Positions 22,801 through 49,800 of a DNA stretch of 64,000 nt are shown here, in pieces (positions within the stretch are counted from its first letter, which is position 1; the number at the start of each line of letters is the position of its first letter). The notes below the pieces were generated by a model that saw only the letters and a program-made list of their open reading frames with translations, did not search any database and was not told the DNA's origin. Both the position numbers and the translations under genes were made by a program. Source of the DNA: Gnetum montanum (taxonomy: Eukaryota; Plantae; Gnetophyta); NCBI GenBank assembly GCA_015680685.1, contig MNCI01000551.1, positions 928,985 through 992,984 on the forward strand, written 5' to 3'.

Positions 22801-25800
22801 TTCAACATAACTAGCAAAATGAACATATAATTATAGAAGAAGTCCATGGCAACACATGTTGCTAGATAGTCAATGAATTCTACAACAAAGGTATTTGGAT
22901 TGAACAACAAAGAAAATACAAATAATGCAGTCAATCTACAGAAGCTTTCATTCTACAAATGATGAGGCAGCCAAAAAAAATCCCAAATGGTCTAACATTT
23001 CAATGTCCACAAATGGTGGATCCTCAATTGCAAGGATCCACTTTTTCTTAGTTTTTGTCTTCATGTTTGTGGATGTGTTTGTGAGCATACTTTGTTATGA
23101 TGATGTGTATGATTTGGTTCCGATTTGCAGATTTGCCTATGATTTCACAATTATGATGGACTTGAATTGTGTTAACCATGCATTCATGACTTTTGTTGTT
23201 TGATGTTGATTTGCAGATTTACCTATGATTTTATAATTGGGATGAATTTGATTGATGTGCTCATAACCTTTATGAAGAATAGCAGCTCTTGTATGCATGG
23301 GTTGAATGATATGTTGGTGATTAGTTGAATGACCAATTATTCGTCTTTGTGATACTATCCACTAATTTAGCATAAATTAATGAAACAAATGAAAGGATTG
23401 TTGAGTAAAGATGGAGTTGACATGTTATATTATTGCTGAGGTCGTTATATGTCTTGATTGTTCATGTGTTGCATGACCTACCTACATTAGAATAATTTCT
23501 TAAAAAAAATAAAATGTTCTTTATGAACTGCATATATATCAATGCAGCTATCAGGTATCTGATGTACATGCTTTTGGGGAGAGCATGTTGGAACCCATAA
23601 CAATTTGACTACAAGTGCACCTCAAGACATACAGCCAATACCATATGTTAGAAGAATTATAAAGGAATATAATTATGCCTCAAGTGGGACTCAAATTAGC
23701 AGCCTATTCCCTACAAATACTTGTGAAACAACAAGCTAATCAGTTGAACCCTCATGCACATTCTTTGTTGCATGTTCATACAAGTTTTGGATTTGTTATC
23801 TCTAAATTTTGCTATGCCCATACTAACCATTGAGCAATCACATTTGGAAAGAAAAGAAAATGACTCTTTATGTTTTTTTTTTCTTTTTTGGAAAAATGTC
23901 AAGCTATATTAATCCAAAAAAAATGGTTGTACAAGTGGAAAGCGTGGGTCAGCGACTCCATGCCCCAAAACAATACAATTCATTTGGATCAAAATCCTTC
24001 CCACCCCCAACCCCCNAAACATCAACAAAACCCCACACTCCCACAAACCCGGCCTAAGCCACAACACAGCCCCAAGCCAACCAAAGACAAGCAACGCCTA
24101 CCCCATAGGACCCTCAAACCCCACCCTAGCCACACAACCACTAAGCATACACATCCAGTCCTAATCCGTCACCCCCCATAGTCCTACTCTCTGCCTTGGC
24201 TGAGGTCATGGACGGCCCTGTATCCACCGTGGTCTACATGCTCATTAGACTAGGCCCAAACGTCAACCTCTAATTGTTCTCTTCAATGAGCTGCGCCAGC
24301 CCCATTTGATGTTCCACAATCACCACTGCCATCCATCACAAGTCCTAAAGCTATCGAGAAATCACCTCCCTTTGGATTTCAATTCAAAGATTCTCCCACC
24401 GCAGCTGCCATTGCCCCTTCTCCTCTAGGCACACTTGCTTGGTGGCAAGACGACACTCCTCAAAGTGTGTTCGGCCACCATTGGTCTACGCAAGCTCCCA
24501 CTCCCTATCCTTTGAATGGCTCAGCCCCTCATCCCTGTCTGAAGCAGTGCTACGATTTCCCATCTTTGGCATCCTGGCACCCTGTCCATGGCCCCACCAA
24601 TGTTGATAAACCAGAGTTGTTGTCAGGAACACAACCAACACACCTGCGTGCCATAGCACTAGGATTACCCCCGGGTGCCATCTGGGCTACCACCTTTGCA
24701 AGGACTCCCAGAAAAATTGAAGCAGGTTGATGGGGGTGTCGTGGCACATATGCTTCAAGAACATGAAATGGATGCCCACAAGCTTATGTGGGTATCCCAT
24801 CTACACAAAATGCCTTTCAACCAAAATCGCTACCTCCCTCCAAATGCCTTGCAACCCAGATTTCTTGATATGTCCACTAGTCATCCTAGGAATTGGTCCA
24901 TGGAAAAAACCGACCACGTTCGTTTGTGCCCTAGCAACTGGTGCCACCACTTCCTCCTCCGCATTCATCCCTAGCGCAGCAACCAGCGTTGACACCGACA
25001 CCTCAATCTTCCTACCCCAATACTATGTTTCGGTGCCTTCCTAGTTGTCATAGAACTGCTACATGGGCAAGCCCAACTCTCCTTCCAAGCATTTTAGCAT
25101 GTCCACCCAGCCCATCCGCTCGACCAACGCCCATAACTCAGGCTCCCGAGAACTCCATCCAAGAGGGTGCGAAGAGCAAACACTGCTCCATAACTTCTAT
25201 GGCCTCTGCCCACAGTAATCACACCTCCCAGCCAACCGTCATCACTAGAGGAAAAACCTGCCCCTGGAAGACCACAGAATTCGGGCGCTTCCACAGAGTC
25301 CACAACATGGCAAGCACAAAAGAATCCCCGTGACACACAGCCACAAGGGTCACATTACCAAACAGCCAGATTGCCTGAGTGACCCGACACTCCTCAATAA
25401 AATGATCCAACGTTTCAGACGCAACGTGGCAAAACAAACAATTCGCCGCCACTTGAATTCCTCTTGCCCTCTATAGTGACCAAAAACGTAAGCGGCTGGA
25501 ACGTCGAGAGGTCACTGGGCATACAACCTAACCACGGATCTATGCAAGGGCCGTGCTGGGGTAAATGGAAACAGGGTGCCCTGAACGGTCTGGTCGATCA
25601 AACAGGGACTTAATCGGTGTACAATAACCTTCCGTAAACGATCGTTTTAAAGATGTTATGTGCGAGCTGAGCGATAAGCGTCAAACGTAAACCAATGGAG
25701 GATAGTGCAAAATATGAAAATAGCAAAACAAAAATAAAACAGGTTTGAGAGAGAAGGTGCACCGCCCCAAGATCGGGGGATCTGATCTTTGCTTGACTGA

Positions 25801-28800
25801 AGGAGGTGTACAACAGATGGCAGTGCAGACAGGCACAGCTTACAATGAAGCAGTATGGTCACAGCTCCTTGAACTGCTGTCAACAGCTTGCTAACAGGAG
25901 CCTTCTGCTTGCCAGTCTTCTTGCCAAAGCTAATTGCCAGGAAGCCAAAATGCTAGAATGCCAAACACGCTCAAAAGCCAACCACGCTAAAAATGCTAGA
26001 ATCCAACCACAGGAAAGATGAGTCCAAAAGCCAACCTTTTGAACATTGTTCGCCGGGGTATTTATAGGGCCAGGAGTGGGAGAAAAACATAGTTTGGATG
26101 CCACATGTCTTGGGCCCCACGGAGTGCAAACGTGACTATGCCATACTGTTGTGTAATGTCGGATGTAAAACCTGCTACGTTGTGACCATACCATTCAAGC
26201 TACATGTGCCAAAGTCCAGTAAGTTGCCATATTTGTTACAAAGAATGCCAACAATGAATGCAAAGTGGAGCCTGTACTCCAGGACTACGTCTTCTCTGCT
26301 CTTGCGGGCAGGGTCAAGCATAGGAACAACTTTGGGGGCAGTCAGGGAGGGTGCAAAACAAAGCAAACTTGCTGATTTTGTCCTTTGAAGGGATGCCAGA
26401 ACGAGAGTGACCATTGCTAACAAGCTTTGGAGCTAACTGAAGATGTCTTGGGGCTCCCACACAAGTGTTACGTTGTTCACGCTGCCTAGCGTACCGGTGT
26501 AGCATAAACACCCGCACGTTATGCTGCGCTACGCTGCGTAGCATAGCGTAGTCGCCAATCTTGAAAGAAATCTTGCCTGAAAGCCGAGAATACATGTCTA
26601 AGGCCTGGCTAGGCAAGCAACTGCAACCCTGTCTTTCATGCTGAAAAGTCTTGAGACATGCTGAGTTCACCTTGGGACGCTTTGGTGCTTTGTGTTTTTG
26701 CTACGATGTGCAACGTAGCACAACGTAGCAGTCATTGTGACATGAATTCCTGTGTGATCTGCAATGCTTTGTCAAGGAACTTTGCTTGGAGCCAGAGGGC
26801 AAAGTGGGATAGTCAGTCTTGGAGGCCGGAGTGTGGCCAAGTGCAATTCTCTTGCTGGAACCACTTGGCAAAGGAGCCTTCATGTGTTCTATCCTTGCTA
26901 CGATGTGCTATGTTGCATAGCGTAGCACAGCGTAACACCCAGTTTGGCTTGGATTCTGACTCAAGCTTGCAAACGTTTGGTCACGGGATATTAATCATGT
27001 CCTGGCGTGTCAACAGAGCAAACCTGTTTGACGGTTGGAGCATGGGCAAGTGTGCTTACTCCATTAGAGCCATATGAGTAGGAGTATCGTCAGAGTGCAT
27101 CCCTGCTACGCTGTGCTACGCTACGTAGTGTAGCACGACATAGCACTCAAATTGCAATAATTTCTGACAAAACTTGCCACATTTTGTTGTATCATGTTAT
27201 TCATGCATCAAGGGTGAAGTGAGGCATATGCCCTGGAGGGCTGAGTTGTTATCAATCTGCATCTTTTGTACCCATTCAGTTTCCTCAAGGCCTACTACAT
27301 TGTGTAGCGTAGCAGGTTCCTGCAGTTAAAAACTTGCCAAACTATTTCGTTCATCCTGAACACTTTCGGCAGCTCCTAGCATGGTCCTTGGGTAGACCGT
27401 CAGCCGGTTAAGTGTCAAGCTGGGCAAGCTAGAGGGTGTAGCAAGCCTGTCAGCCCGAGAGATAGAAAATTTTCCAGACTGTACGGTCTACCCCCAATGC
27501 CTCTTTCATGCAAACTAGCCTTGTGGCTGGATGCCACATTGACTGTGCCGCAGAGGGCATTGTCTGCACGGTCCAACATGACACCATGCTTGCAAGGACC
27601 CTTGCCCAAATTCTGGGACTACTAAATCATGAGAATCCCAAAATTTATGGTGTTTCAATGGCCCCTCTTTGTTGACGTCTAGAGGATCTGCCCGAGAGAT
27701 GTCAACAAAGAATACAAAACACCATGAAGAACCAGACACCAACATCGTTCTTCAGTGTCCGCTTAGATGACACTTTGCTACATTTGAGAGTGCTGGGAGA
27801 GTGATGTAGGATAGGGGGTAAGGGATGGAGTTGAGGAAATAGGTTCGGGGAAGAAACGAGTGTAAGATGTAATGCTTTGAAAAACTATTGCCATAGTGTG
27901 ATCCCTCGTCAGAGTGCTTATGAGGGAGTCAGCACACATGGGTGTCTTTCTTTGTTAGCCTTTGACCTCTCACCGGAATACAGAGATGGTCAATTTATGG
28001 CCAAAGCGATTGTTAAGTAGCACGTTGTGCCATTTGTTTTAGGCACCTTTGTTTTTTTTTTTTTTTTTTTTTTTTNGCTCTTTTTGCATTTTTGTGCTTT
28101 TCCTTTGCTATACACCCACGTTCACTTGCAAGCAACCTGTTGTTGTAGGACAAATGTTTCCTCCCCAAGATGAGTTGTGTTTCATCCATGTGGGGCTTTG
28201 ACCTACCTATAGATGCTTCCCATGGGGCGAGTTGCATTACGCCCATCATAGACTTGAGGGTTGGGCATGTGAAGAGGCTTTATGTGCATTGGGAAAGCTT
28301 GTGAATGGGGATATGAAAAATTGCAAGTATAAGGAACAGGGGTTAAAGTGGCTGAACGGAAGGATAAAGTGTGCACTCCCAAGTAGCTAAGCTAATCATA
28401 GCGATTACTTCGGAACAATGGAGTGTCTTGCTCTTGTGGCAAAATGCATCTTTGAACGAGGCCATCTTGGTTTGTATCCTGCAAACACAACAAAGAGAAA
28501 ACCAGAAAAACGACCATCAAATGAAGTGAGGGCAAAGTCCTGCTTGCTTTGGACACCGTCAGAGTGGCAAGTGTTGTTGCTAAAGTGTGCAATGTCCAAA
28601 GTAGGAAGGCCAGCATAGATCCTGGCCACGGCAGGTTGGAAAGGGTGGCACCGAACAGACTAGGAGCAGTGGTGATGCAGGTGCTCAGGATTCCTCGCCC
28701 AAGGAAAACATCATGCAGTCTAGCTGCAAGGTGAGAAGCCTAACAGCTGAACGCCTCTTGGACTCGGACGATGGCAAGGGCTGGAGGATGGCAATCTTGT

Positions 28801-31800
28801 GGCTGGGCCACAATAGTGCTAAGCCTCCAACAACAGGTGTTGACAGCAAGAGCTACTGCTAGGATAAGTGGTTGTGGTAGCAGTAGCTCCGGAAGGTCAG
28901 CAAGATGTCAAACGACATCTCCGGAAGATCAGCAAGATGCCAAGGGCAATGACGTTGCATGTGTTCCAGAGGGTTTTGCTTCTTAGCATCGTGAACTGCA
29001 TTCTGGAACTGCAACGTCCCACCCCATGTTGTCCAGGGAGTTTGAAAGTGTGCACGCTTGCTTGTTCATAGGGTCATGGATGTGAGCTGGGGGGCATTGC
29101 ACTACGAACCTAGTTTAAGGTCTTGGTAGACCATCAGATGTGCTGGTTTAGGGTCCCAGCAGACCGTGATGTGCTAATTTAAGGTCCTAGCAAACCGCTA
29201 TGCTAGTTTATCGTCGTAGCGAACGGTGGATGGCCAATTTAAGGTCATAGCGGACCATGCTGTGGGTGCCAGTTTTGCGTCATAGCCCAAGGACGTGCTG
29301 TGTCAGTTTAACGTCATAGCGAACATGCTTTGCTAGTTTTACATCGTAGCAGACAATTGTCTTACCTTACTCTGTACTTGATGTAATCCTTTGCGTCAAA
29401 CATAGTATGGCTTGAGATTCAAGTAGTTAACAGGATTTGCGAACTCGTTACCATTCATATCAACCAATTTGAAGGCCCTGTTCTCATAGGCTTTCGTGAC
29501 TACGAAAGGGCCTTCCCAGTTGGCTGAGAATTTGTTTACATGTTCACGAACAGCCTTGAGAAATAGGTCCCCCTTCTTGATCGGCCGTTGATGTAAATTG
29601 CAGTGGTGCTTTTGCCGTTGTTTATCCTGGTACCATTCGATGCGACCAAGTGTTTGGGCACGCTCCTCCTCTACAAAGTCAAAATCGATGATCCTTGACT
29701 CGTTGTTTTGAGCCTCGTCCACAACGTTTAAGAGGATCATCTGAAGTGATGGAACCTGCAATTCAAGGGGTAACACTGCTTCAGATCCGTAAACAAGATT
29801 GTATGGAGTCTTACCTATAGTTGTCTAGCATGTCGTACGGTAAGCCCACAACACGTAGAGGATTTGCTCGTGCCATCGCCTCTTACTGCTACTAAGCATC
29901 TTTTTGAGAAGGTTGATAATGGCTTTATTTGTTGCCTCTACCTGACCGTTGGCCTGTGGGTAGTACGACAATGAAAAAGAGTGTTTAATGCCAAGGTTGT
30001 CACAAAAGGTTTTGGTTTCCGCGCTACTAAATTGTGGCCCATTGTCCGTCACAATAGTCATGGGAAGACCAAACCTTGGTACTATGTTATCCAAGATAAA
30101 GTGGCAAACCTATTGAGATGTAGTCTTCCTTAGGGGAATAGCCTCTACCCACTTTGTGAAGTATTCGGTTGCGGTGATAATGAAGTTGTCCTGTAGAAGA
30201 CTTAGGTGTGATGGGTCCTATGATGTCTAGTCCCCAACGTTGGAATGGCCACATGATCTGTGTAAGATGTAAGTCCGTAGGTTACACATGTATAAGGTTT
30301 GCATGACGTTGACATACATCACATGTTCTAACCTTGGCAAGGCAATCGCGTTCTATGCAAGGCCAGTAGTACCCTAGGCATCTGATTTTTACTACCATAG
30401 CCCTAGGGGCTATGTGTCCCTCACATAGTTCCTCATGGACTTCGTTAACAATTTTTTGTGCTGCAAGTTAGCAATATCCCATCAAAGGAGCGTTTGCATA
30501 AGGTGTTATCTCCTATAAGGACATACTGTCAGGCTCACTTTCGTATTGCATCCTTTTGAGCAGATGTCAAGCCGTGTGGGGGTTCGCCATGTTGAAGGTA
30601 TGCTTTGATGTTTGCATACCATTCTTGGATATCTATCACACTGACAAATGCGATATGTGCCGCTTGAGTAATAGGATCTATGCATTCTATTATCGAAGCA
30701 GGAAAAGTTGCAAACAAGTGTGATGGCACATTCAATGCTAATGTGGCTAGGGCATCAGCTACGATGTTCTCGTTGCGAGGTACATGTTGAATGTCTAACA
30801 TTGTGAACTGCTTTAGTAAACTCTTAGCTAGATCGCAATAAGGTTGCAAATGTGAAGCCTTGCAAGCATAGACTTCAGTGATCTGGTTGACAACTAATTG
30901 TGCGTCACCCTGGACTGCCAAATGTTGGATCTTTAGCTTTTGTGCTGCTAAGAGGCCCCTAAGGAGGCCTTCGTACTCAGCTACGTTGTTCGTACAAAGG
31001 AATGTAAAGCGATATGCAAAGGGTCGAATTTCCCCAGAGGGAAATGTAATAACTGCGGCGGCGCTACCACCTCATGTAGTTGAAGCACCATCAAAATGTA
31101 AGCTTGCTTCGAAATCAGATGGTACAGAGTTTAGGCTATTGATGTGTTCATCCAGGAATTCGGGTTCTATTATTGCCTGATCATCAATAGGTGAAGTTGT
31201 AACTATGTGGCTATTACTTGATCCTTTATTGATGATTGTGCCACATAATGTAAATCGAATTCCACCGTTATAGCTTTCCATCGGGCTATCCTACTGCTCT
31301 CGTATAATGTAAATCGAAGTATGTTGCTCTTGCATATGATGTTAACTTTGCTGCGAAACAGGTAATGTCTCCACTTTTTGAGCGCAAACACTAAGGCGAG
31401 ACAATATTTTTCTACCCCGTTGTACTTTGCCTCGTAAGCTATTAATGCATGGCTTAAGTAATAGACCGGGATTTCAAACCCGTCGTCTCTTTTTTGACCT
31501 AGCAATGCAGCAATAGATGTGTCTGAAGTGGCAAGGTAGATGTAGAAAGGCTTACCTCTCTGTGGTGGGTAAACAGTTGGGAGATGCAAAAGCTCTTTCT
31601 TTAGGTTATCAAAGGCTTGTTGACATTGATCTGTCCACTCAAAGTTGACCCCCTTTTTGAGTAGGTGTTGCATGGGGTGTAGTTTGTCCGTCAACCTCGC
31701 AATAAACCTTCTGATAAACTGCACTCTACCTTGCAACCGGCATAATTCTTTAGGGTTTGTAGGTGGTGCTAAGTTAACGATGGCCCTCACTTTATCGATG

Positions 31801-34800
31801 TCGACTCATATCCCTGTTTCCAACACTACAAAACCTAGCATGCGTCTGGTTTTAACTCCAAAAACACATTTTCTAGGGTTGAGGCGCAGGTCATGCCTAT
31901 GACAACGTTGGAGGACTATATTGAAATCGTTGGGATGATCAATAGCTTTCTTAGACTTGACTGCTATGTCATCAACTTAATCATTTAATATCTCCAAGAG
32001 GTAGTCAATAAAAATATATGTCATGGCTCGTTGATAAGTTGTTTCAACATTTTTGAGTCCAAAGGGCATCATTGTGTAACAAAAGGTTCCCCAAGGGGTC
32101 ATGAAAGTGGTTGCCAACTAATGCTCTAGGTTTATACGGATTTGATTATAGCCCAAGAACCCATCCATGAAAGACAGTAAGGCATGACCAACCGTAGTGT
32201 CGATGAGTTGATCGATACTTGGCAATGGGAAATCATCCTTAATTGTTGCTTTGTTCAAGTCTTGAAAATCTATACAAATTCATATACCTCCGATTTTCTT
32301 AGAAACTACAATGATGTTGAAATTGCCAGTTTAAGGTCATGGCAAACCGTCACCGGGCCACATTACAAGTTTAAATTGCTAGTTTAAGGTCTTTGCGGAC
32401 CGTAACTGAGCCGTATTGTAGGTTAAAATTGTTAGTTTAAGGTCTTTGCGAACTGTAATAAGGTCTAAAATTTGTAAATGTAGAGCGAAAATTTTGGTGG
32501 GCCCACTTACTATGCTACCGATGAGTGCTACATTGTAGTGGGACTATGTTACAGTAGTGCTACGCTGCAAGGGTGTCCCACGTTACCCGAAACGTGAAAG
32601 TGACAAGTGTTTTACTGCGTTGGCTATAAATAGGGGATTACCCCCTGGTAAACTTGTCATTCTCCTTGTCAAAGCCCACACTCAGAGTGTAGCGTGGTCA
32701 AACAGAGAGAAAGCGTAACAGGCATAGTGTAGCAATTGGTCCTACCGATTTGTGAGTAAGGCAATGGTGCCACAAAAGCGAACGTAGGCATTGGGGACTT
32801 GCCAAGGTGGATGAACTAAAGGACACTCTGGGGCACCTCTCCAAGGCACGCGTCAAGGAGCGGCAAGAGGTTCCGTCTGCTTGGTAAGTCGTTACACTAC
32901 CCTTGTTTCCATTATGTGATGCATCAGGTTAGATTGCCATTGTCATTACTGTTGTCATTTTTGCAACTATTGTCATTGTTTTTGTTGCCGTTTTGGCCGC
33001 TACACGGTGGTTGTCGCTACTTGGCCGCAGCGGCCGTACGGTTGTTACGCTACAGCTGCATGCGGTACCACACCGGCCGCCATTGTTAAGAATAGTCACT
33101 GCACTATCGCAGGGGTTTAGGCGATTCTGGGCAGCATAGCGCACGCTCGGCGTAGCGTACCACCCTTAAAGTACTTTATTTGTTTGCAAAGTTTTGGAGC
33201 AGCGTGGCACATGCCTAGCGTAGCATAGCATGAGCTATTTCATATGGTAGGGTAGGGTTGGGACAGCGAGGGCGCTGTGAGTTCTTTTTCATTTGTGCTA
33301 TTAGACTATAACATTTTCATTGTTGTTGCACTACGCTATTATATTGACAAGCCCTTGGGCCGTCACACTGGCACTCTGTTATGCTGCTATACTGTTAAGT
33401 TTGTAACACTGCTACGCTGTTAAGTTCGCCATGCTACTAAATTTGCTACACTACAACGCTTGTTCCATTGTTACACTACTTGTCCCGTTGCGTCCGTTGT
33501 ACTTGTTCTGAGGTGCAGTCGTCTTGCTACGCTACACGTAATGTAGCTGATACCCTTGTGCAAAAGTGTAACTGCTATGCTATGTCGTACAAGGTATGTC
33601 TGCTACACTGTGCTATGCAGCGCGTAACTGTTACTCTGTAGATTGCATCCCTATGCTACGCTACATGTGGTCTAGCTGTTACGCTACGCTACACATGACA
33701 CTTTGTTGCATTGCATGCAATGTTTAACTCTGTTTTTTACCTGAGACTTATTTGTTTCACGCCTAAGGGAAATTCATAAACAAAGGGTCACGCTACGCTA
33801 CATCAGTGATCATTACTTGAACACAGTGCTAACGTTTGATGCTTTGTCATGCAAGGTCATATTGAAACCCGTTCTAATCGTCCTTGAGGTGGTAGGAGTC
33901 CTATGCTGACTTAGCAAACCCATGGCCAATGCCCCCCCACCCCACACACGAGTAGGGCAACAGGCGATCTAGTTCCAGGAGGGTGCACGGGACTTCCTAG
34001 AGTTCCTCCTTCGCCATTTTAGTGTGATCGTGTGGTCACACTTATCGGCCAAGACAGCGGCTGTACTTACAGAAACGTTGTTACCCAGGGCAAACCAAGG
34101 CATTCTGAAGTTCATGGCTGACAAGTCAATCGATGGCAGCGAAGGGGCAGAAGGCTCAGACCAGCGCCCAAGGGACTTGAGACACCTAAGTTGGATCTAG
34201 GACATGCCTGAATACAAATGCTACTATTTATACAACACATTATACATTGCCCGTCACATGGGCACTTGCTTTCAAAACCCACCTGGAACCGTTTATTGTG
34301 CCAACGGGTGAGTCCTGTGGAGGTATTTTAATGTGTTACGCTAGATAAAAATGCTTACTGTATTCTTGCATGTTGCCAGGTTTTATATCGATGAAGGTGA
34401 TCTTCACGGTAACACAGATACATTGGCGTTGACCCAAATGGCTCTCCAAGAGTTCTCCTCTACCGGGAACGTGCATGCCGGTGTTATAGAACAACTTGGG
34501 CTTGATTTTAAAGCCTATCCAACCAGGTATTCCAAGTTCTATGGGAAATGTAAGGAAGTTGGCTGGTTGGATAGCAAATGGACATCGTGCTGACCGATTA
34601 CCATTGAAGACATTTTGGTGGAACTCCCACCATTTCCTATGCCGTTTAAACCTAGTATGTTAAACTGTGTGTTTGTCCTTATGTGTTCAAGTGATGATGT
34701 GCTTTTTGCCTTTGCTAACTTTTGTTTGTTGTTAACCGTGCAGTAGCGAGGGAATCCCAAGAGGTCACAGTGATCACCTTTGGGCATGACGAGATCAACC

Positions 34801-37800
34801 TCTTCTTCAAGTATGGGGAGGTGGAGGAGACTCAGCGTTGGCTGTGCAATGGGGCCCCAACCACCCTTGTTCACAACATTCAGGAGGCTGGGCTCATGGA
34901 TTTATTTCTGGCTGTAAATCCAAGTGTCCCGGCTGCAGAAATGCTTTCCCTAGCCGATTCCTTCTCCGAAAAGGTTGACCGCTTCCGCACATGTGTTCAC
35001 AATGTGGGTGGTGTTCGAAATTAATGATCAACTATTTGTGGATCTTTTCGGTGTCCCTTCAGATGGTCTCCCTATAGGAGAAAAATTTAAGAAAGATGCA
35101 AACCATCAAGGGGATATTGAGGAATCGCTAGGGACGAGCAAGGACCGAAAGGGGATTTACATCCACAAGGTCAAGCTAGTGATGGCCCAAATGGTTTACC
35201 CTGTCTTCCGTGCCCGTGCCTTCCCTAAGCTACTCTCCCAAGGAAAAATTCTTGGGGTAGAGCAAGCTTGGATAATGAGGGAGGTCATGGAGGAAGGGAC
35301 CCGTTATAACTAGGCCAGGTACCTTTTGGAAGGCTTGCGTACTGAAATGGTCAAGCTTCATGAGAATCTTGACTCTCGTTTCAACATGCACTACGCCTTT
35401 TTCGTAGCTTGCTTGCGACGGTTCGCAGAATTCCTGGTGGTCCATGAAAATGGCGCCTGGGTACAGCAGGATCGTAACTAAATATCTAAGCCATGGATTT
35501 GCCAAGTTTTCCGCACCACCCGATCCCAGGACCCCCCAGAAGCTATCAGGGAATCACTTTCAATAATGACGAGGGATCAGATGGCACGACCCTTTCGTGC
35601 CCGGGACAGTGTGGGGGAGGCACCTCCTATTAACACAGGCAATGTGTTAAGGGGGGAACGCCTCATTGCAGAAACAGTGAAAACTAGGCTGCAGCGTAAG
35701 AAGTCTTGTCCTACAAAAGAACCTCTCCGTATGAATGAAGAGAGGGGGAAAAAGCTGCGAATCAAAGTTCGCAAAGTGCAACCCCCAATTGGTAAGTGTA
35801 TTTAATTGTCCGCTTAGTGTAGCATCTGCTACGCTGTGATACGTTGTGTAGCGTAGCGTAGCACCTATTTTATGCTAAAGTGTCCTGCTTATTTCGATCA
35901 TGTGTTATCAGAAGAAGAAGAAAAGGAAGAAGCCTTGGCCCCTGGAGTAGGGGCACCTAGTGAAGAAGAAGAAGAGGCCCTAGCCGTAGAAGAAGAGGCC
36001 CCTGCCAATGACCTCTTTGCAGAATGTGATTCAGTACCCAAGGGGCACATGAGTGTCGAGGACGCCGCTGCACTTTTGAATCTGGAAAGAGAGGGGCTAC
36101 AATTTGATGTTGGTGAGTTTGACCGCTTGCTTGACAGTGTGTTGATGGGCGATCCCCCCGCTATCACCCTTAAGGGTTTGCTGGGTAGGAGCTTTGCACT
36201 GTCGTTTGTCATTTTTCATTAGCTTTGTTGTTGTCCTCTCCATTGCTAACATGTTTTATTGTGCAGCGGACACCACTGTTGATGCCCCTGGCCCTTCTTC
36301 CTCAATCCATCTCCGACCCTGGACCGAGACCCCTGACAAATTCACTTTTATGGAGGAGGTGGTCGATGACATGATCGATCACCTGAGGCAAATCGATCCT
36401 AAGATTGGTACGTTAAAATTGCTACGCTAGGCTCTCTACGTTGTTGCAATTTTGCTATGTCACTGTGACTAACGCTCTCCCATGTATGATTGGCAACCTC
36501 TTGTCTCAAGTGGGATCCTAAACAAGCCATTGAGGTCGATGTTGTGCCCGAACTTCCACCAAAGGTAGCCAAGGTACCTTGTCACATATACGATGAAGCA
36601 AGTAAATGTGCGTTGTATTCGGCATGCTCCTCATGGGAGTGTAGGTGTGTGAATGATGATTTGTGGAAGCGGGTACAAAAACTTGAGAAAGAGAAGGCCA
36701 ACCTAACCACTGAGGTGGGGGACCTCTGCTCCAGAAATGAATTTCTGTTAGCCCGTGACACTCGCGATGGCAGTTGGCGTACGGCAGTCATTGACTACGC
36801 AAGATATTGGACAGCCATACGAGGTAAAAATGAGGCCACTCATGAGATCATTGAATAGCACATGCAGATGGACCTTCTAGCCCAGAAGAACCAAGACTAA
36901 AAGGATTATAGTGCAAAGGTTTACGAATGGGGACAGGCACAGAAGAACCATAAGCATATGTATAAAATGAAACGTGCCGCCTATCGTAAACAATACCGGG
37001 ATGCTTCGGTTAAGTTGCATACCCATGAGCTATTCCTTGATGTCATTGGTGCTTCCGAGGCTTATGAGAAGTTCATGCAACAGGTGATGGTCAGTGAGTC
37101 TCCTGAAAGGGAAATGACTCTACCTGCCGGGGAGACCACCACCGCCACGTTTTCCCCAGGACCACCTAGATGGACAGCTGTGAAAAAAGGAAAAGTTGCA
37201 GCAAGCATTGATCTGGGAGATGGGAATTGGGCCAACCTCACTGAGGAGGAGATCCTGCAACGTCTTGCAGCTGGCATGGATTGGATATCCTCCGAAATGG
37301 ACGTGGGGCCATCTCATGTTTGTCTCTTTTTGTTGTGTCATAGTTTATTTTATAAAAGCCTCTGCTGTAGCTTTAATTCATTGTTTTATTTTCTGTCTTA
37401 CGCAGGATCCAAATGAAGAGGCAAGACCCAGTGGAACAGGGAATGGTGATGTAGGCGAAGATTCATAGTGTGGCGGCGTGAAATTTTTAATTTTTGCTTT
37501 TTGGATTTAAAAAAAAAAAATTGTAAACATTATTGACTGATATTGAATATAATGTGAAACAATTTATTTCATTTTGGTTAATGTATTATATTTATTTTTA
37601 TTCTCTGTCTTTTTTTTTTTTTGGGCCCCTTGGGAGCTTCTTGTTTTAGTTTAAGGCCATTTCAGGCCGTCACTAGTTTTAGGCCATTTCGGGCCACAGC
37701 AATAGTTTAAGGCCATTTCGGGCCGTCGCTAGTTTTAGACCATTTCGAGCCGCAACAATAGTTTAAGGCCATTTCTGGCTGTCACTTAATGATAAAAGAT

Positions 37801-40800
37801 TTTTTTTGTTTGTTTTTGGAGACGTGGAGTGGCCAGTTTTAAGCCTTAGTGGGCCGCGATGGTAGTTTAAGGCCATTCCGGGCCACGGTGCTAATTTAAG
37901 GCCATCTCGGGCCGAAGCGGTAGAATCAATGCAAGCAATAGCTATAATGTAAATGGTGGACACAATGTAAACAGTAAACACAATGCGGATGCAAACAATG
38001 GACATGATGCAAAGAATTGAAATAATGTAAACAGTGATTGTAATGACAAAAGAAATGAATATAATGCAAACTGTGAGCAGGGGTGCTAAAAGTGAACATA
38101 ATGTAAACAGTAAACGTAATGCTAAAATTAAGATGGAAGAGGATAATGAAGCCAAGCATTTATGGGGCTGAACTAGAGATAATCTCTAATTACGCAGTTG
38201 TTTTCTAACCCATCGTGGGCTAGGTGAAGCGTATGGCTGAGAGGCTTTGTTGTGGTATTCTTCTATGTTGTTGTCTACCGCCTGGAAAGGCAACTCGACC
38301 CACATAGTTTCTTTGTCTACGTCGGCGTTTTTGGCTGGCTCATCAATCAAACAAGTAGTTTTAGTAGGAATAGACGCTTTGTTTTCATAAATTACTATCT
38401 CTGAGCCCTACTCCATGTCAACATTGTTTATTGCTTGGGCAGCCACTTCGTCACCACAGATCACCACTTCCCTGCTCACATAGGGTAAGTGGATCTCTTG
38501 ATGTATGGGTGAAGAGACAATCCTTAATTGGGCTAATGATGACCTCCCCAAGATTAGGTTGAACCCGGGCATCTCTTCTACCACGATGAACACCGCGCTT
38601 GTGGGGAACTAGTTCCCTACCACAAAGTTAATGTGGACAGTTCCCTTTATCACTACGCATGCTCCGTTGAACAATTTTAGGCACGAAGTTGCTGTGGGCT
38701 TGATTTGATCAACCAAACCCAATTTGTCCACTATGGGAAATGGAATGACATTTGTAGCGGCCCCATCATCAACGTGTACCCTTCGGATCTTGTACTGGCC
38801 GACCTGAATTGTGATGAACATGGGCGTTGTTGTCACCTGACCCTTTTCAGGGTCATCCTTAATGGACTTATCATGAAATGTCAACTAAGTCGGCCGCAGT
38901 TCCTCGGCCGTAGAGGGAAGCATGACAGCGTGGATCACTTTCTCCTCGGCCAGCATGCTTTCGTCAACCGGAATGGATGTTAACATGTGAACCATGGCCC
39001 CGTGGTGCGCAGTGAAAGTCATTACCAAGTCATACAAACTCAAAGTTGTATTTTTCTGTTTCAGAGCCTGTTTAACTTGCGTGAGGGCGTTGAGAAGACC
39101 CTGCCCATCATCTTGTTGTTTGTTACCCCTTTCCTCCTCCATTCGTCCTAGGAGACAAATCTCCCGAGGGGGGCAGTTTCAGGTTGAGAGCTGGGCTTTC
39201 TCGGGCGGGAAGGTGACGATTGTGTGCGTGCATTGTTATCAATTGTTGATGACGAAGGGGCCATGGGCTTTGAGGCCAAGGGGGTAGGCTTGGGGGGACC
39301 TAACGCAGTGCGTTCCTTGACCATCTTGTACGCTTAAAGCTCCTCCCGTTTTTTCGAACGGCAAGGCTGCGATGCTATTTTTGTTGCTTGGCTTTGTGTG
39401 GTAGAGGCACTTGAATGTTTTGGCACCTTAATGATGAATGGTGCCTATTGTGTTGGCACAGGCGGCGGTGCAACTTTGAGCACAAAGGGTGCGGAGGCGG
39501 ATGTCTGAGGAGGAACCTTAAGGACAAACAGTTGTTGTGATGCCATTTTTGTTGTTGTTGGGGTTGCTGCGTTACGGGGAGGCACACGCACCACGAATGG
39601 TTGTTGTGGTGGTTCTAGATTGTTGTCAATGCCAATAACGTTGATTGTGTACCCTGCGTTGTTGGCGTTCAGGGGGTCCTTGTAAACATGCATTGATTGA
39701 TTCTCGAGGCGAACAGGACTACTTTCGTCCAGGACCAACTTGCCCTAATCGATCATGTGTTGGATATCGTCTTTCAATGCTAAACAGTAGTCCGTATTGT
39801 GACCACACAATTGATGGTAGACACAGAACCATTCTAGCCTGAAGTTCTTAGGAACTGGTGGCTCATTGGGCGTGGCCAAGGAGGGGTTCTTGAGAACTTC
39901 GCAATATCTTTGATGACGCTTGATTGCCTCATCCGACATCCGTTTATGTTGTATACACCTAGCACCTAGCAATTGCTTCAGCAGTTTTGAAGGCTTAATG
40001 GGCAAGGGGGTATACTTAGAGCGATCCTTGCGCTCAAAGTTGGGCCTAGGCTGGGTTGACGCCTCAAATGCTGATGTTGAGGGTTGACCGGTGTTGCTTG
40101 AACTAGGTGTGGCATTGGGTGTTGTGGCCGACTTCTTGTTGTTGCTGTTGTTGGGTTTGGTCTCGTTGGCTACAGCGGCCACCATGGCTGTTCCGGCCTT
40201 GCCCTTCTCTTTGTCCTTTTTGATGTGTGCATTTTTGTATGTGACATAGGCCGGGTCTTTGCTAGCTTCGGCCGCATCCTGGATGCTCTTGGTCTAAGCA
40301 AAGGCTTGGCTGAGAGAGCGCGGAGCCAAGTAATAAAGCTTAGACTTAATAAAGTCGTTTACTGCTCCCTTGAAGATGGCCAACAAGTGGGCCTCAGCAA
40401 TAGGCTCGTGTATCTCATTCAAGGTGGCACTCCACCGCTGTATGAATCTCTACACAAATTCCAGTGAGTCTTGCTTGACGCTCATGAGCTGGTCCAATGT
40501 GACCTCCAATTTCAAGTTGTACTTGAAGCGGGTCACGAACTGACTCAACAACTCCTCCAAGGTTGAGATGGAGGCACGTGGGAGCGCACGGTACCAGTCC
40601 AGAGCTTTGCCTGTTAGAGACATGGCAAAGACACGGATGATGGTGTGTGGCCATTGTTGCAACAGTGGAGATTCAGATCTAAACATTCCCAAATGAGCGT
40701 TGGGATCGCCCTCCCCGTTGTATTTTGTAAATTGGGGGAGCGACACCCCGAGGGGTAGCATAAGCATAGGGACAGCCAAACTGATGGGGTCGTCATGGTA

Positions 40801-43800
40801 AAAGTCCATCACCTGTATAGTGTCAGAACCGACGGCTTTGAGACATTTGATTTCCTCAATGAGGGTCTGGATGAGCTAAAAAGCTTGATCCAGACTTGAG
40901 GACGTTGCAGACGGTTGCGGGGCTGCCTTAGTAGCCATGGTTGGTGGCGCTATAAAGGCAGCAGCCTGGCCCATGGGGGGCGCCGTTGGGGCCACTCCTA
41001 CAAATGGTGTTGGGCGATCCACCACCTAGTAGGTGGTGCTGTTGGGGCGGTAGCCACTGGTGGCGCTGTGGGGTTGGTAGCTTGCCCGGTTGGCTAGGCG
41101 ACCCACAACCCTGTGTTTGGTTGTACTATGTGCGGAAGCTAGTGCGCTTGGGGTTGCACGTAGTATGACACCTGAGATGGTTGTGCAGTAGGTAAAGAAG
41201 TGGCTAGCGCCCACCACGCGGTTGAGACTAAGTCTACTATTGGTGGTGAGAGGGGTGCAGACGAGGGACCAAGGGTGAAGCTCACATGCGACTATGACGT
41301 GGGCAGAGTGTGGACGTATGGCAGCATAGCCGTGACTGACGTTGGGTACGATGCCGGGGCAAACTGACAAGGAAGGGTGACTGGGAAAGAAATTGAAGGG
41401 CCCACTTGCTGGTACGTAGAAGGTACGGGATGGTTGCCCATGGCTGACAAGGGTGTGGGTTGTGGTAGGGTTGTGGTAACCACGAAGGGGGCAGAAGCAA
41501 AGAGCGGGTTTGACCGAAAGACAACGGTGGGAGGGATAGTTGTAGCGTAGGTCTGGCCACCACCTTCGGAGTGGGAGTCTAAGTCTTCCTGTCTATCCTG
41601 AAACGCCTCATCGTAATGGGACGCTATGTCCTGTTCCCTAGACCTACTCACTCACATCAACTGGTCTAAGACCCATTGATATGCTTCAGTCAACGAGATG
41701 GTGACGTTAGGGGCATGGATGAATTCCCTCCCGTTCCAGTGGAGGAACTTGAAGTTATGTTTGTCCTCGAGTTCCTAGTGGTCCAAGGGTAGATTCGCCT
41801 AGACCTTTGCACAGAGGAAATCATATCGCTCTACATCTTGCACCAAGCGCTCGGATGACAAGTGCCGCAGTCTAAGGGACTGACATGGTGCCAGCACTGG
41901 GCTGAGCGGTTGCTCGAGGCCTGTCGTGTTTTGGACCGAGTAGGGAACCTCCAAGTTCGAGGTGGGAACAGCAGTGGTTGTGAGAATCATCTTGTGTTGT
42001 AAGATGGAAACTATAAAAGAGAAACTGCAACTAGCTACACTGGGGAGTTACGCCTGCTACGCTAAGCAAGAGTGTTACACTAGAAGGTTTGCTACGTCGC
42101 ACGAGATGCAAGTAGCGTAGGGTAGTGAGCAAAGTAAATGCGATATAGTGATCGGTTGGAGGCTTTCGTCTTGCCGGGTCCCAGAGGAACCGTCATTGCG
42201 ACCAGTCTACACCACATGGTGCGTAGACAACCACAACAGTGTCACGTCTATGCTAGTAGGTGACAAGGTACAGATAGCGTGCAAGATTACCCGTGATACG
42301 AGAATAGGGCACCAAGGCCCTCCTAGTGCCAAAAACTATAACGACCAAAAACGTCAGTGGCTTGAACACCGAGAGGTCACCGGGTGTACAGCCTAACCAC
42401 GGATCCGTGCGAGGGTCATGCTGGGGTAAACGGAAACGGGGTGCCCTGAACGATCTGGTCGATCAGACAGGGACTTAATCAGTGTATAATAACCTTCCGT
42501 AAACGATTGTTTTAAAGATGTTATGTGCGAGCTGAGCAATAAGCATCAAACATAAACTGATGGAGGATAGTGCAAAATATGAAAATAGCAAAACGAAAAT
42601 GAAACAAGTTTGAGTGAGAAGGTGCACCGCCCCAAGATCGGGGGATCTGATCTTTGCTTGACTAAAGGAGGTGTACAACAGATGGCAGTGCGGACAGGCA
42701 CAACTTACAACGAAGCAGTATGGTCACAGCTCCTTGAATTGCTGTCAACAGCTTGCTAACAGAAGCCTTCTGCTTGCCAGTCTTCTTGCCAAAGCTAATT
42801 GCCAGAAAGCCAAAATGCTAGAATGCCAAACATGCTCAAAAGCCAACCACGCTAAAAATGCTAGAAGCCAACCACAGGAAAGATGAGTCCAAAAGTCAAC
42901 CTTTTGAACATTGTTCACCGGGGTATTTATAGGGCTAGGAGTGAGAGAAAAACATGGTTTGGATGCCACGTGTCCTAGGCCCCACAGAGTGCAAACGTGA
43001 CTGCCATACTGTTGTGTAATGCCAGATGTAAAACCTGCTATGCTGTGACCATACCGTTCAAGCTGCATGTGCCAAAGTCCAGTGAGCTGCCATGTTTTTT
43101 ACAAAGAATGCCAACAGTGAATGCAAAGTGGAGCCTGTACTCCAGGACTACATCTTCCCTGCTCTTGCGGGCAGGATCAAGCGTAGGAACAACTTTGGGG
43201 ACAGTCAGGAAGGGTGCAAAACAAAGCAAACTTGCTGATTTTGTCCTTTGAAGGGATGCCGGAACGAGAGTGACCATTGCTAACAAGCTTTGGAGCTAAC
43301 TGAAGATGTCTTGGGGCTCCCACACGAGTGTTACGCTGTTCACGTTGCCTAGCGTACCGGTGTAGCATAAACACCCACACGCTATGCTGCGCTACGCTGC
43401 GTAGCATAGTGTAGTCGCCAATCTTGAAAAAAATCTTGCCTGAAAGCCGAGAATACCTGTCTAAGGCCTGGCTAGGCAAGCAACTGCAACCCTATCTTTC
43501 ATGCTGAAAAGTCCTGAGACATGCTGAGTTCACCCTGGGACGCTTTGGTGCTTTGTGTTTTTGCTACATTGTGCAACGTAGCAACCATTGCAACATGAAT
43601 TCCTATGTGATCTGCAATGCTTTGTCAAAGAACTTCGCTTGGAGCCTGAGGGTGAAGTGGGATAGTCAGTCTTGGAGGCCGAAGTGTGGCCAAGTGCAAT
43701 TCTCTTGCTAGAACCACTTGGCAGAGGAGCCTTCGTGTGTTCTGTCCTTGCTACGCTGTGCTACGCTACATGGCATAGCACAACATAACACCCAGTTTGG

Positions 43801-46800
43801 CTTGGCTTATGACTCAATCTTGCAAACGTTTGGTCACGGGATATTAATCATGTCCTAGCGTGTCAGGAGAGCAAACCTATTTGACAGTTGGAGCATGGAC
43901 AAGTGTGCTTACTCCATCAAAGCCATCTGAGTAGGAGTATCGTCAGAGTGCATCCCTGCTACGATGTGCTATGCTGCGTAGCGTAGCACGGCGTAGCACG
44001 GCGTAGCACGGCGTAGCACGGCGTAGCACTCAAATTGCAATAATTTCTGACAAAACTTGCCACATTTTGTTGCGTCATGTTATTCATGCATCAAGGGTGA
44101 AGTGAGGCAGATGCCCTGGAGGGTTGAGTTGTTGTCAATCCGCATCTTTTGTACCCGTTTAGTTTCCTCAAGGCCTGCTACGCTGTGCAACATAGCGTAG
44201 CGTAGCAGGTTCCTGCAGTTAGAAAACTTGCCGAATTGTTTTGCTGATCCTGAACACTTTTGGCAGCTCCTAGCATGGTCCCTGGGTAGACCGTCAGCCG
44301 AGTTAAGTGTCAAGCTAGGCAAGCTAGAGGGTGTAGCAAGCATGTCAGCCCAGGAGATAAAAAATTTGTCGAACTATACAGTATACCCCCAGTGCCTCTT
44401 TCATGCAAACTGGCCTTGTGGCTGGATGCCACGTTGACTGTGCCGCAGAGGGCATTGTCTGCACGGTCCAACGTGACACCATGCTTGCGGGGACCCTTGC
44501 CCAAATTCCGAGACTGCTGAATCATGAGAATCCCGAAATTTATGGTGTTTCACCCTCAACATGGCCCTCACCGGCAATGCCCTATGCTTTAATAACCACC
44601 TGAAAGCCTTTATCTTTTTTGGAAGACGACCTTTCCAGACCTCCACCAAGCCATCCTCCAAGGATATAAACATTTGACAATCTCCTTCGGGCTTTGCCCC
44701 AATAAATCCAATAGGTCCATTGCACTAGCATGACAACACAAATTTTTCCAAAGTTGGGAGTTGTCCATATTTGCCTCCTAGCGACTATATTTCCACCGTA
44801 GTAGCTGCTCCCACAGTGTCGCCCCCTCAGTTGGCCCCAAATAGCGGTTGAGCAACTGGTGCAATCCTAACATCACCTCATCCCCGAATTGGAGTATGCC
44901 AATTCCCCTTATCGGCTTGGGTCGTGTCATTGTAGCCTAGAATACCAAATGCATCTTTCTGCCCCCTTTGGCTCCTAACCACATGAAATCCTTAACAATG
45001 CTGTCAATTTTCTGCATCACCATAGCCAGCGTTGTGGCCATGGACACCACAAACCTGGTAGTCGCCATCAAGACGGTAGTAGCAACCACCATCTTCCCTT
45101 TCGAGAGAGGAGGCGGCCAGTCCACAATGTGGTTTTCTGCTAAACCTACTCCACCATTCCCACCCAAAACTTCTTCATTTTCCAATCGAAATGGGCATGC
45201 CTAGATAAGTGTCCTGTGCAGTGCCCCATAGAATTCCCAAGGTCTGAATAATCCTAGTCTGCACCGTGCCCGCCATGTTGACGATGTGTATGACCTCACG
45301 CTGCATCCATTCTAAAGCCCATAATAGGGCCTTTACCTATGGCACTGCATCCCTACAGAAGATCATTGTGTCATCAGCATAGTGTGCTACTAGACAATGC
45401 ACCCCCACAATATTGAGCCCCTAAACCTCTTCGACAAGGCAGTCACTTGTGAACAAGTCCATCACCATGATAAAGAGGAGAGGCGACAATGGGTCCCCTT
45501 GCCTCAACCCTCTCCCCATCCCTTGAAATCCCCATAACCTCCCATCAATATCAAAAGAGTAGTGGCCACTTCTTTGCATTTGCATGCATAGGTTGACAAA
45601 TCTGGCATCAAAGCCCTTTGCCAGCATTATAGTCCAAAGCGCCGCCCAACTCACCATATCATAGGCCTTGGTGATATCAAGTTTAATACACATTCCCGAG
45701 AATTTAGCCATCTTAAGCAAGTGCAGGATCTCCTACAACAGCAAGACCTAATCTTGCAAAAGGCAACCCTTGATAAAACCAACTTGGTGTGGCCCAACCA
45801 ATTTCATCATTAATGGTGCAACCTGCCCAACTAGCATCTTGAAGAAAATCCGTAGAAGAGTATTACAAACTCCTATGGGTTGGAAGTGCCCTGGTGAGGA
45901 TGAATTAGGCACTTTGGGTAGTAGCACTACCTAGGCGTTGTTGATTTCTCTCCTCACCTGTTGCCAGCAAAGCATACTGTTAAAAGTGTCCAGCATGTTG
46001 GCCCCCAGGATGTCTTCATACTCCCTAAAAAATGCAATTGGCCATCCATCCAACCCCGAAGCCTTGTTAGGCTACATCGACTTCATGGCCCTCCGTAGCT
46101 TCTCTCGTGAGAACAAGCATAGCAAATTCAAGTTATCAATTCTCATGAGAACCTGTGGTATTGGTATTGAGATAGGCTCTGTTGCTTGCCACCTCCAAAT
46201 CTCCCCCCAAAACATCCTTAAGGCCTCCAACCCCCTCCAGCTGCTCTGTGGTCCTCCTTCACCCATACCCTTCAGTAGGTCATGGATTTTTTTCTTGTAG
46301 GCCCGATTGGTTTTTGCCGTAGCAAACAAAAAACCTTGTGTGCTTGTCCCCTTCCCTCAACTAGGAGACCCATGATCTCTACCTCCAATAGCTCTCTTCC
46401 TCCCTAAAGTTCCTATAGCAACTCTCTTTCTTCATCTTCCTAATTGTCTCCCATTTCCTAGCGCCACTAGATTTCCCGAAGTTGTTCCTGTACCTATTTC
46501 CTATATCCGTAAAAGTTGTACTTGTCTTTTGTTGCTTTGGCCTTGATGGCGAGTTTAAGGGCTTGTAGTCCATCTCTCAAAAACTACCTGGGTTCCTGCT
46601 CCCCTATATAGGCCTGCCAGAGAGTTGCAACTAGCGGTTTCAGCCAAGCTTTGTGCAGCCACGTTCTTTCAAACTGAAAAGGCTGGGGTTCCTAACACTC
46701 CTCAAACTGGATTTGGCAGAGAATGGACCAGCAATTCGAAGCCTGCCATTCTTTGCCCTCCACCTTGATGTCAAATTTGATCATGAGGCTCAAACTAACC

Positions 46801-49800
46801 CATATCTGATTGATCTGGGACTACACCTAATCCATCCCTCATCGTCTATTGCTCCATGTATATTTGCATCCCCTGATCTCTAGGTCCACCAAATCATACT
46901 GGCAGAGGAAGTCAACAAAAGCCTCGGCCCCCAAAGGGTCCATGCAATCATTCTCCGTTTTTTCCCAGCAATACAATCGCTCATTAAAGTCACCCAGCAA
47001 CATCCGTCTAGCGGAATTGGAAATGACCCCAACAACCTATCGTAATTCTTGTACCTAGGCATCCCAGTCTTGCACCCCGTAAACATTTGTGAGCCAAAAA
47101 TCAACTTGTCGCAGGTAAACTATCTAACTCCAATCGGAGTCGTCCACATATCATACAAGAATTCTAGCCAGAATGGCTAGCCCTCTTGCACAACCCCTAC
47201 TTGGCACCAAGTGCATGCTCCATCCCTCCCAATGCAACAACTGCCACTTTGCCGTTTATAGCTTTGTCTCCTGTAAGCATACCACATTACATCCTGCATC
47301 CCAAACCATCATTTTCAAGGTATTCCTTTTGTACAGGGTACCCTGGCCCCTACAATTCTAGGTGAGGACTTTCATGGGGATGTAGACACTCATCTGTGGT
47401 ACACCTCCTGGAGTGTTCGCTGCATCCCCAAATCTAGATCCAATTGCATGGATTTCTTAACTCTTTATGTTGTGTTAATGGCTGAAACAAGTATATTTTG
47501 CGTAGCATTAATGATTCTTTTAAAATATACACACACATGCATTGCTAAGAAATTTGACCAATGAACCAAGTGAGAGGAACCTGACCTATGAATTAGGGAT
47601 GTTATGTATTTCATGGTTGTATTATTTTTAAATATTGGACATGTATAATGTTATGTATGTTTTTGATGCACTATTCCTCATAGTATCATCAATTAATAGA
47701 ATATAAGTATCCCCTCTACGGCTATAGAAAGGTTACATGATGACCTTTCAAAGCATCACAAGATAATGCAATAATAAGCCATGAACATAAAATGAAAAAA
47801 GTTTACATCAATAATGGCTTAAAAGAGAAGGTGTTTACCTTGGTTTTATGTCCTAGACTTGCACCTTATCATGTTTTCATTTGGAAATTTTTTTTTTCCA
47901 ATGAAGAGGTAAACCCAGTTCTATCATGGCCAGGGCACAACCAGAAAGAAATTAAAGCACGATAAGGAAAAAAAAACATTTGGAGACAACTGCAATATCC
48001 AAGAGAACATGATTCAAACATACCAATCCTAAACAATATAACAACAGGGGGAAAAAAGAAAAAAGAAATAGAGAACCTCTGCACTTCGGCCTGTAGATTG
48101 AGGATCATCATTCTTCGTAGCAGCAACAAACTAGGTCAAGAGGGCCTCATGCACAAAACAGATGGTGGGAAGGTTTTATCAACAAATACGAAAATGTTAC
48201 AACTATATCAATATGATATATTAGCGATGGGAACAAGCCTTTGACTTTCAGACATTCCCACGCTAATTGAACTCTTGACCATTGGTTAAGAGCATTAACA
48301 AACCAGAAAGATGGATATTGGCCCCTATTATCTGATTAAAATAGTTCCAAAAATCATTAGTAGTTGTGCAAGTAAATAAAGCATGATGTATAGCCTCCTT
48401 TTCTTGATGACACTGCCCACAAATATCATTGTTGATGATGCCTTTTTTAAAAAGGACAGCTTTGACATGTAACATGTTGTGAAGGCTTGTACTCATGAAG
48501 GTGCGATGCTTGGGGACAACGACCTTGCACAACCATGTGCTTTTCACCGAGTCCTTTGGATTTTGATGAAGAGTAGAATAAGCATTTTGCCCTTTGTAAG
48601 TTGATTGATTTGCCCATAAAATTTTATCATTATTAAGTTGAATAAAGTTGGAAAACGAAGACCAAGCTTGTTCAAAATTGTGCCAAGTAGCTAAGGCAAG
48701 AGTTACAATAGGAGCATTATGGAACATGAGCATTATGGAACATTAAACCACCGTGTAAATATTTAGCTTTCAAGATGCGGACACAAGGCTTGCCAAATTC
48801 CCATGTTTAAAAATTCTTATGCCTCATCCACCTTCACCAATATCTCTGGAAACTTCCATTCCAATTAATAGAATGGAAATTTCTTGCACAAGTAAATCAA
48901 AGAAAGGACCATTCATGTTTTTCCAAATTATTTAATAGAGATGCAGGAGCTTTATGAAAAGAAAAAAGAGGAAATATAAGGGACTTGCTTGTAACACTGA
49001 TTTTAAAATCTCTTTCTTTGCATCTTATGACATAATTTAGAAGAAGGAATACTGCTAGAAATGAAGCACAACTACATATTGATTGCTAGTAAAATTTAGA
49101 AATTACATGTTGCTAACACAAAACTAAGGAATAGATATGGATATTACGTTTGAGTACATTTTATAATTGTCAATTTTCTATTATGCCAAATCAAGCAGAA
49201 TTGAACTTGAGAACCAGCAAAATCAGAATTCTAAAATGTTAAAAGTTGTGGATGTGGGAATTGAACCTGCAACGTGTTAGAACATATTTTTAATAGTGAT
49301 AAAAAAAAGAATTGAATTCATCACTTGGCAGCATGAACAAGGTTTTAAAAAAAGAGAAAAAAACTAATTTCTAGAAAGAATCAATTACAACACATAACCC
49401 ATTCTCTTTTGAATTCCCCTAGTAGTTATAAAGGGACAGAAGATATGGGAGAATGAAAAAAGAAAAGAGAGTGAGAGAGAAGGTTGTGCAGGTGGAGAGA
49501 AGAGAACAACCACAAGGGGTTGTGGCTGAACAAAATATGAACATTAACAAAAGAAGACTGATTACTACAAAAGCAAGTAAAATGAAAGAAAATCAAAGCT
49601 GAGCAACAATCCAGTATATTAATAAATTCATCTTGGTAAACAAGAAATGTGAGCAAAAATACAAGAGGATCCTTCTCTTGTGTTGTTTGATAATGGACAG
49701 CAATGAATGATTATCTTAATATCTCTTGTCGAATTGCTTTGGCATTGCTATCTGTTTATGATTCTATCAACTTTAATAAAATTTGTTGTTGAGATCTTGG

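Follow-up and report, generated by a model that had tools for sequence, protein, structure and literature searches.

The window, the whole 64,000-nucleotide stretch of DNA that was analysed, contains a 19-kb Tat-type Ty3/gypsy LTR element on its minus strand. Within this element, on the opposite strand at 33856-34654, lies DNA encoding a NIF/FCP1-type HAD domain. The parts of the element and its repeats are as follows.

42337..44552, minus strand: 5' LTR of the LTR pair, about 2.2 kb, followed by PBS-like sequence
38190..41651, minus strand: gag and protease region, with a stop near 38190 and then an AT-rich stretch
37647..37914: 29/56-bp tandem arrays with a AGTTTAAGG/AATTTAAGG core
32316..32474: 53-bp tandem array adjoining the truncated RT; its last unit is at once the first RT codons, a microhomology
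29396..32318, minus strand: decayed pol remnant with RT (lacking its N-terminal linker), RH, archaeal-type RNase H and integrase
29112..29350: 31-bp tandem repeat array after the integrase
25472..27657, minus strand: 3' LTR of the pair, with a purine tract before it

An earlier note on this DNA had assigned the element to the Tat type. This assignment is confirmed by the LTR pair, the 5-bp target site duplication CCCTC at 44553-44557 and 25467-25471, and an extra archaeal-type RNase H between RH and integrase (RVT_3 in Pfam, E 5.7e-21). The resulting RH-aRH-INT order is described for Ogre/Retand elements of the Tat clade (PMC6317226), and the gag-PR-RT-RH-INT series is present with a 5'-truncated RT. 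Between the two LTRs, 138 transitions and 21 transversions amount to a K2P distance of 0.078. None of the 120 database proteins listed, of 267 found, is more than 48% identical to RT-RH, so the lineage is poorly sampled; the best matches bear no Ogre or Retand label.

The order of parts is gag, protease, stop, AT-rich stretch, tandem arrays, plus-strand gene, 53-bp array and RT, which places the antisense gene of this copy between the protease and the truncated RT, not between pol and the 3' LTR. The RT start at 32318 is abrupt. In 80 homologues, another 130 residues come before this point; by profile search they are absent from the whole window, while the same profile detects this linker in at least 11 of 36 control loci. 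The break in RT coincides with a microhomology to the tandem-repeat unit (32316-32345), yet both LTRs and the target duplication are present. The AGTTTAAGG/AATTTAAGG core is common to the arrays at 37647, at 32316 and after the integrase.

Several further observations concern the element and its surroundings. Both LTRs read TG...TA on the element strand instead of the usual TG...CA, and they contain short GCTAC/GTAGC inverted-repeat arrays, found again in the first intron region at 33000-33850. The stretch 3' of the integrase (27660-29100) is short, about 1.7 kb; it is without a recognisable ORF and has an A-run, on the element strand, near 28050-28075. The element is inserted in a minus-strand LINE (24290-25466 and 44558-48742) with RVT_1 and zf-RVT matches. 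Elsewhere in the window, a G-rich block at 55041-57631 holds several ORFs of 146-211 codons with no Pfam family at a useful E-value, as well as a 50-nt inverted repeat pair (55969-56018 and 56735-56784). At 4416-4982, a 22-bp tandem array lies within a 183-codon minus-strand ORF that has no Pfam match.

The predicted spliced antisense gene

The NIF domain is predicted from the sequence to open a spliced protein of about 1,000 residues that runs antisense to gag-pol. All parts below lie on the plus strand.

32625-32632, plus strand: TATA-like box, putative, by its sequence
up to 32884, plus strand: candidate upstream exon, probably non-coding, ending at a GTAAGT donor
33856..34307, plus strand: exon A, NIF/FCP1-like HAD core with motifs I-IV (by profile and alignment-guided model); stops at 33907, 33970 and 34198
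34308..34379, plus strand: predicted GT-AG intron, 72 nt, phase 2, frame kept, low family depth
34380..34654, plus strand: exon B, likely C-terminal NIF helices and linker; one stop, at 34591
34655..34743, plus strand: predicted GT-AG intron, 89 nt, phase 1, frame kept, low depth and indels
34744..35791, plus strand: exon C, a domain of about 300 residues; two stops and a frameshift near 35010-35020
35792-35911, plus strand: predicted GT-AG intron, frame kept
35912-36184, plus strand: predicted exon D, acidic, low-complexity linker
36185-36266, plus strand: predicted GT-AG intron, frame kept
36267-36407, plus strand: predicted exon E, acidic, low-complexity linker
36490..37470, plus strand: distal coding part with a putative acceptor, two stops and, by eye, a coiled-coil-like stretch

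The peptides KPVLIVLEVVGVLC, FQEGARDFLEFLLRHFSVIVWS, LKFMADKS, RDLRHL and YNTLYIARHMGTCFQNPPGT, which the earlier note had obtained by manual translation, are all present in the plus-strand frame that starts at 33856, and the splice it proposed into FYIDEGDL is plausible across the predicted 72-nt intron. Its further proposal, that the domain is fused to a transposon protein, is probable: four predicted introns, all in frame and with a higher AT content than five of the six exon segments, link the NIF domain to the exons downstream.

Exon C occupies the position where Ogre antisense ORFs have a PMD. Its broken halves gave no useful E-value against Pfam, with no PMD or Transposase_28 match, and a weak Atlas lead points to DUF1985 (score 0.87, 11% of members). 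A DUF1045 hit on the same exon (E 0.04-0.05) was dismissed as chance. Pfam and Atlas gave no match for the distal coding part.

About 8 stops and one frameshift interrupt the gene in this copy. Since its density of stops, about 8 per 1,000 codons, equals that of pol (9 per 848), its frame would have been about as intact as that of pol at insertion. Judged by these frames, this copy is dead, the antisense gene and pol having decayed alike after insertion.

The NIF/FCP1-like domain and its active site

The homology of the domain to NIF/HAD proteins, which the earlier note had claimed, is borne out by sequence matches and by a host profile measured against shuffled sequence. A 646-residue read-through with stops as X was searched with phmmer against 1.84 billion representatives (E up to 0.001). 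Four of the five matches, the top-ranked ones, are NIF proteins aligned on the NIF domain (E 1.4e-5 to 3.9e-4), one of them named 'putative FCP1 domain, HAD superfamily protein'. The remaining match, the SH3 repeat protein P0005, falls on a different part of the query and was dismissed as chance. A host-only profile of 123 host proteins gives exon A 43 bits and matches just the NIF place when all six window frames are searched; 1,000 shuffles and one reversal score at most 2.8 bits. The host set was gathered with a profile containing the window sequence, which makes this comparison mildly circular. The Pfam NIF model also finds the domain (E=0.016, 15.4 bits), though below its gathering cut-off of 21.8. 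A word-indexed protein search with the NIF read-through gave none at E 0.1 among 213 candidates, and single-sequence searches of solved structures gave no useful match. Identity of the domain to host proteins is 19-32%. Taken at the level of sequence, the homology is close to certain. The likeness of exon B to the host C-terminus was judged by eye, and the host profile gained no score there.

The aligned core of the host profile covers residues 4-102, and motif IV was placed instead by multiple alignments, in which it is anchored by the flanking N-T and N-P-P-x-T. One alignment (A1) was discarded because its row P0009 is a DUF724 fragment. In the alignment used below (A3), the tail of exon A (residues 147-151) is misaligned to a later host segment and was excluded.

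A comparison of the window domain with the 78 host rows of alignment A3 shows that four of five catalytic features have been replaced. The motif I nucleophile, Asp in 73 of 78 host rows, is Glu in the window, and the D+2 position, Asn in 71 of 78, is Val. The motif III Lys, present in every host row, is Arg, and the motif IV Asp-Asp pair (77/78 and 76/78) is Ala-Arg. Only the motif II Ser/Thr, found in all 78 rows, is retained, as Ser at 34036. The Arg-Pro before helix A, invariant and non-catalytic in the host rows, is also gone. The matching positions in Fcp1 are described as the nucleophile, the general base, the oxyanion Thr and Lys, and the metal ligands (PMC4436666). Glu, Val, Arg and Ala-Arg at these positions make catalysis very unlikely, and very probably the domain is catalytically dead throughout the family. 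The earlier note had held that simple C-to-T decay does not explain the losses at the nucleophile and the Asp-Asp pair; this is correct, since Asp to Glu and Asp-Asp to Ala-Arg need transversions, which such decay cannot give.

The donor of the domain is likely, from sequence, the plant C1271.03c-like (DLNG-type) subfamily and not SCP1/FCP1. When the nearest relatives are compared with solved structures by profile, UBLCP1 ranks first (E 5.7e-8) and SCP1 comes after it. The suggestion that the domain binds the Pol II CTD or acts as a decoy is unsupported, the nearest relatives being C1271.03c-like. The description of the domain as a captured pseudophosphatase holds for the loss of catalytic residues but needs amendment in its timing: the donor subfamily already has Asn at D+2, so part of the loss predates the capture. 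In the C1271.03c-like subfamily (P0001-P0004 and P0130-P0248), motif I reads D-x-N-G throughout; in a few members, Gly or Asn replaces its first Asp. Host members of this subfamily, in a match set that is nearly all angiosperm, may themselves be atypical or dead phosphatases.

Structure prediction depends on the host sequences supplied. With the host alignment, AlphaFold2 returns an SCP-type fold at pLDDT 80.5, a result that is partly circular because it leans on that alignment. The alignment-guided model superimposes on CTDSPL with Z 12.1 and rmsd 2.3 over 121 aligned residues, and on known NIF-fold structures with TM about 0.6. Folded from the single sequence without an alignment, the domain reaches pLDDT 50.3 and the HAD fold is not formed.

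Family copies and competing explanations

DNA runs of four organisms from three studies, one of the runs possibly from the window's own source organism, were mapped to 33700-34800 at 80% likeness. Each run yielded 5,368-7,260 contig pieces. The family is therefore high-copy, with thousands of related pieces in each of the four organisms. Searches of metagenome and viral contigs found no family copy, and 36 RT-related loci, mostly short and distant, gave no NIF match. Neither these contig searches nor the protein searches yielded an intact copy or a protein of the family.

These copies bear on whether the domain was kept by selection or is a relic: a NIF fragment captured once, whose function was lost early and which was amplified passively, selection being elsewhere or long over. 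The median depth of the 21 exon bins exceeds that of the 7 intron bins by a factor of 3-6 (P 0.0006-0.003 per run, the four runs not being independent of one another), which argues against a relic. So does the pattern of substitutions in the NIF exons, where 15 of 27 exonic majority differences fall at codon position 3 (P=0.014) and 13 are synonymous against 8.3 expected (P=0.04). The other two frames give no such signal; the statistics are modest, drawn from 40 variant rows listed of 341 and chosen by the tool. The listed exonic indels are confined to one loop (34132-34137), and the hydrophobic core is retained while the active site has changed by transversions. Depth follows host conservation within exon A significantly in just one of the four runs. 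Two defects of exon A, its first stop (33907) and the absence of a start codon where it begins, are private to this copy: at each, 96-99% of the depth differs. A relic would account for the low identity to host proteins, for the loss of residues that are invariant without being catalytic, the Arg-Pro before helix A among them, and for the poor single-sequence fold. It would also suit the remaining three of the four NIF-exon stops, which are not among the 40 rows listed of 341 and so are not shown to be private. On balance a relic is unlikely, and the domain was probably kept by selection.

The odd place of the plus-strand block between protease and RT, together with the missing RT start, could also mean that the block is a separate nested element, whether a DNA transposon, Helitron-like or other, that entered pol and deleted the start of RT. 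This is quite improbable. No terminal inverted repeat pair of at least 40 nt links the ends of the block, Pfam found no transposase family in it, and the arrays on either side of it have the same core as the array that follows the element's integrase. Antisense ORFs with tandem arrays are, moreover, described as typical of Retand/Ogre 3' regions (PMC11963269, PMC6317226).

That active members encode a working or re-tooled enzyme, the replacements being limited to the sub-lineage of this copy, is the least probable explanation: the motif II Ser is kept, Glu and Arg are conservative at two sites and variants below about a two-thirds share are not displayed, but five positions have changed together, and in none of the four runs is a majority difference listed at the motif I, III or IV codons (33886-33894, 34180-34181 and 34249-34254). 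Each listed variant reaches about 67% in at least one run, so presumably no alternative letter reaches two-thirds at the Glu, Val or Ala-Arg codons. At a lower share, places of the relevant kinds are few, with 2 C>G, 4 G>C and 5 C>A reaching 15% over 1,101 bases in run X1. The survey of family copies proposed by the earlier note thus shows no contrary majority letter among the 40 rows listed of 341, which supports, and does not prove, that the Asp loss is shared.

The explanation slightly favoured as a whole is a spliced antisense accessory gene of an Ogre/Retand-type family carrying a captured, dead NIF module; that the domain is native cargo of this LTR family is, taken separately, very probable. 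An Ogre/Retand-type (Tat) family would have captured a host NIF/HAD phosphatase domain and transcribed the antisense gene in the direction opposite to gag-pol, from an internal promoter belonging to that gene. Its introns would outlast retrotransposition, since they run backwards in the genomic RNA, as follows from established retrotransposon biology. Selection would then have kept the fold while Mg2+-dependent catalysis was lost, leaving a likely non-catalytic binding module on a multidomain protein made up of the dead phosphatase, the domain at the PMD position, an acidic linker and a coiled coil. In the nucleus, this protein may act in trans by docking on a host partner that is phosphorylated or itself binds phosphatases, and would thereby favour the element's expression or movement.

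The copy in the window most likely arose by template switching and was, we infer, mobilised in trans as a chimera. One parent would have supplied gag, protease and the cargo; pol would have come from a partner that may have been without the antisense gene. About 13 nt of microhomology would mark the switch.

A more specific version of the accessory-gene explanation is distinctly unlikely. It holds that the Tat family made a pseudophosphatase-PMD-like fusion converging on MAIL3 and MAIN/MAIL1-PP7L, whose pocket counters silencing. The dead HAD pocket would hold a phosphorylated chromatin or transcription factor, and the cargo-bearing gag-protease elements would supply the fusion in trans to pol-bearing partners.

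Comparison with known systems

The antisense extra ORFs of Ogre/Retand elements are reported to carry a PMD, a PMD with a coiled coil, or Transposase_28 (PMC4408406, PMC11963269, PMC7264820). The window gene resembles the eORF-3'R of these elements in being antisense to gag-pol, in its flanking tandem arrays and in the RH-aRH-INT order of its element (PMC4408406, PMC6317226, PMC11963269), and it too ends in a coiled-coil-like part. Unlike eORF-3'R, it has an N-terminal NIF/HAD domain and at least four predicted introns, lies between protease and RT, and gave no detectable PMD or TRP28 match.

The REXdb table of eORF domains contains no NIF or HAD (PMC6317226, additional file 4). Its cut-offs are E 1e-10, 250 codons and 5 elements, and a spliced, diverged domain would therefore be missed. 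The predicted introns suggest the same of ORF-based surveys with a 250-codon cut-off, REXdb among them, for spliced antisense cargo generally. NIF/HAD is likewise absent from the Retand domain descriptions consulted. No paper on NIF/HAD cargo was found in the open-access literature. Retrotransposon-borne NIF/HAD cargo is absent from the surveys checked, and an earlier mention is possible.

With C1271.03c-like proteins (PF03031), the window domain shares L-x-x-L-[D/E]-x-x-G-x-L, F-L-x-F...F-x-V-x-x-W-S, N-T and N-P-P-x-T. It differs from them in that the nucleophile Asp, the Lys and the Asp-Asp pair are replaced and in being transposon-borne and probably fused. The same fold as in SCP1/CTDSP, FCP1, CTDNEP1, UBLCP1 and Tim50 appears in the alignment-guided model, but unlike these proteins the window domain is without the DxDxT motif, its identity to them is 9-18%, and nothing in it points to a CTD pocket. 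Tim50 uses the NIF fold mainly for binding.

Orchid Gypsy elements carry an ORF for an AlkB m6A demethylase, reported as an active enzyme (PMC9289625). There, as in the window, an Ogre-related Tat element has taken up a host enzyme domain as a fixed extra ORF; unlike AlkB, the window domain is, by its residues, catalytically dead and sits on a spliced antisense gene. MAIL3, a PMD-PP7 fusion, and MAIN/MAIL1-PP7L join a phosphatase with a transposon-related domain and control transposon expression (PMC7156037). Unlike the window gene, they are host genes with a PPP rather than a HAD fold, and they would be a parallel only if exon C proved PMD-like. PP7L is catalytically inactive.

The function of Ogre/Retand antisense extra ORFs is an open question, and these ORFs are described as usually without a recognisable host source (PMC7264820). 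The window gene, in contrast, starts with a traceable host domain. Because the NIF fold and active site are well understood, partner pull-downs and assays that add back the Asp become possible.
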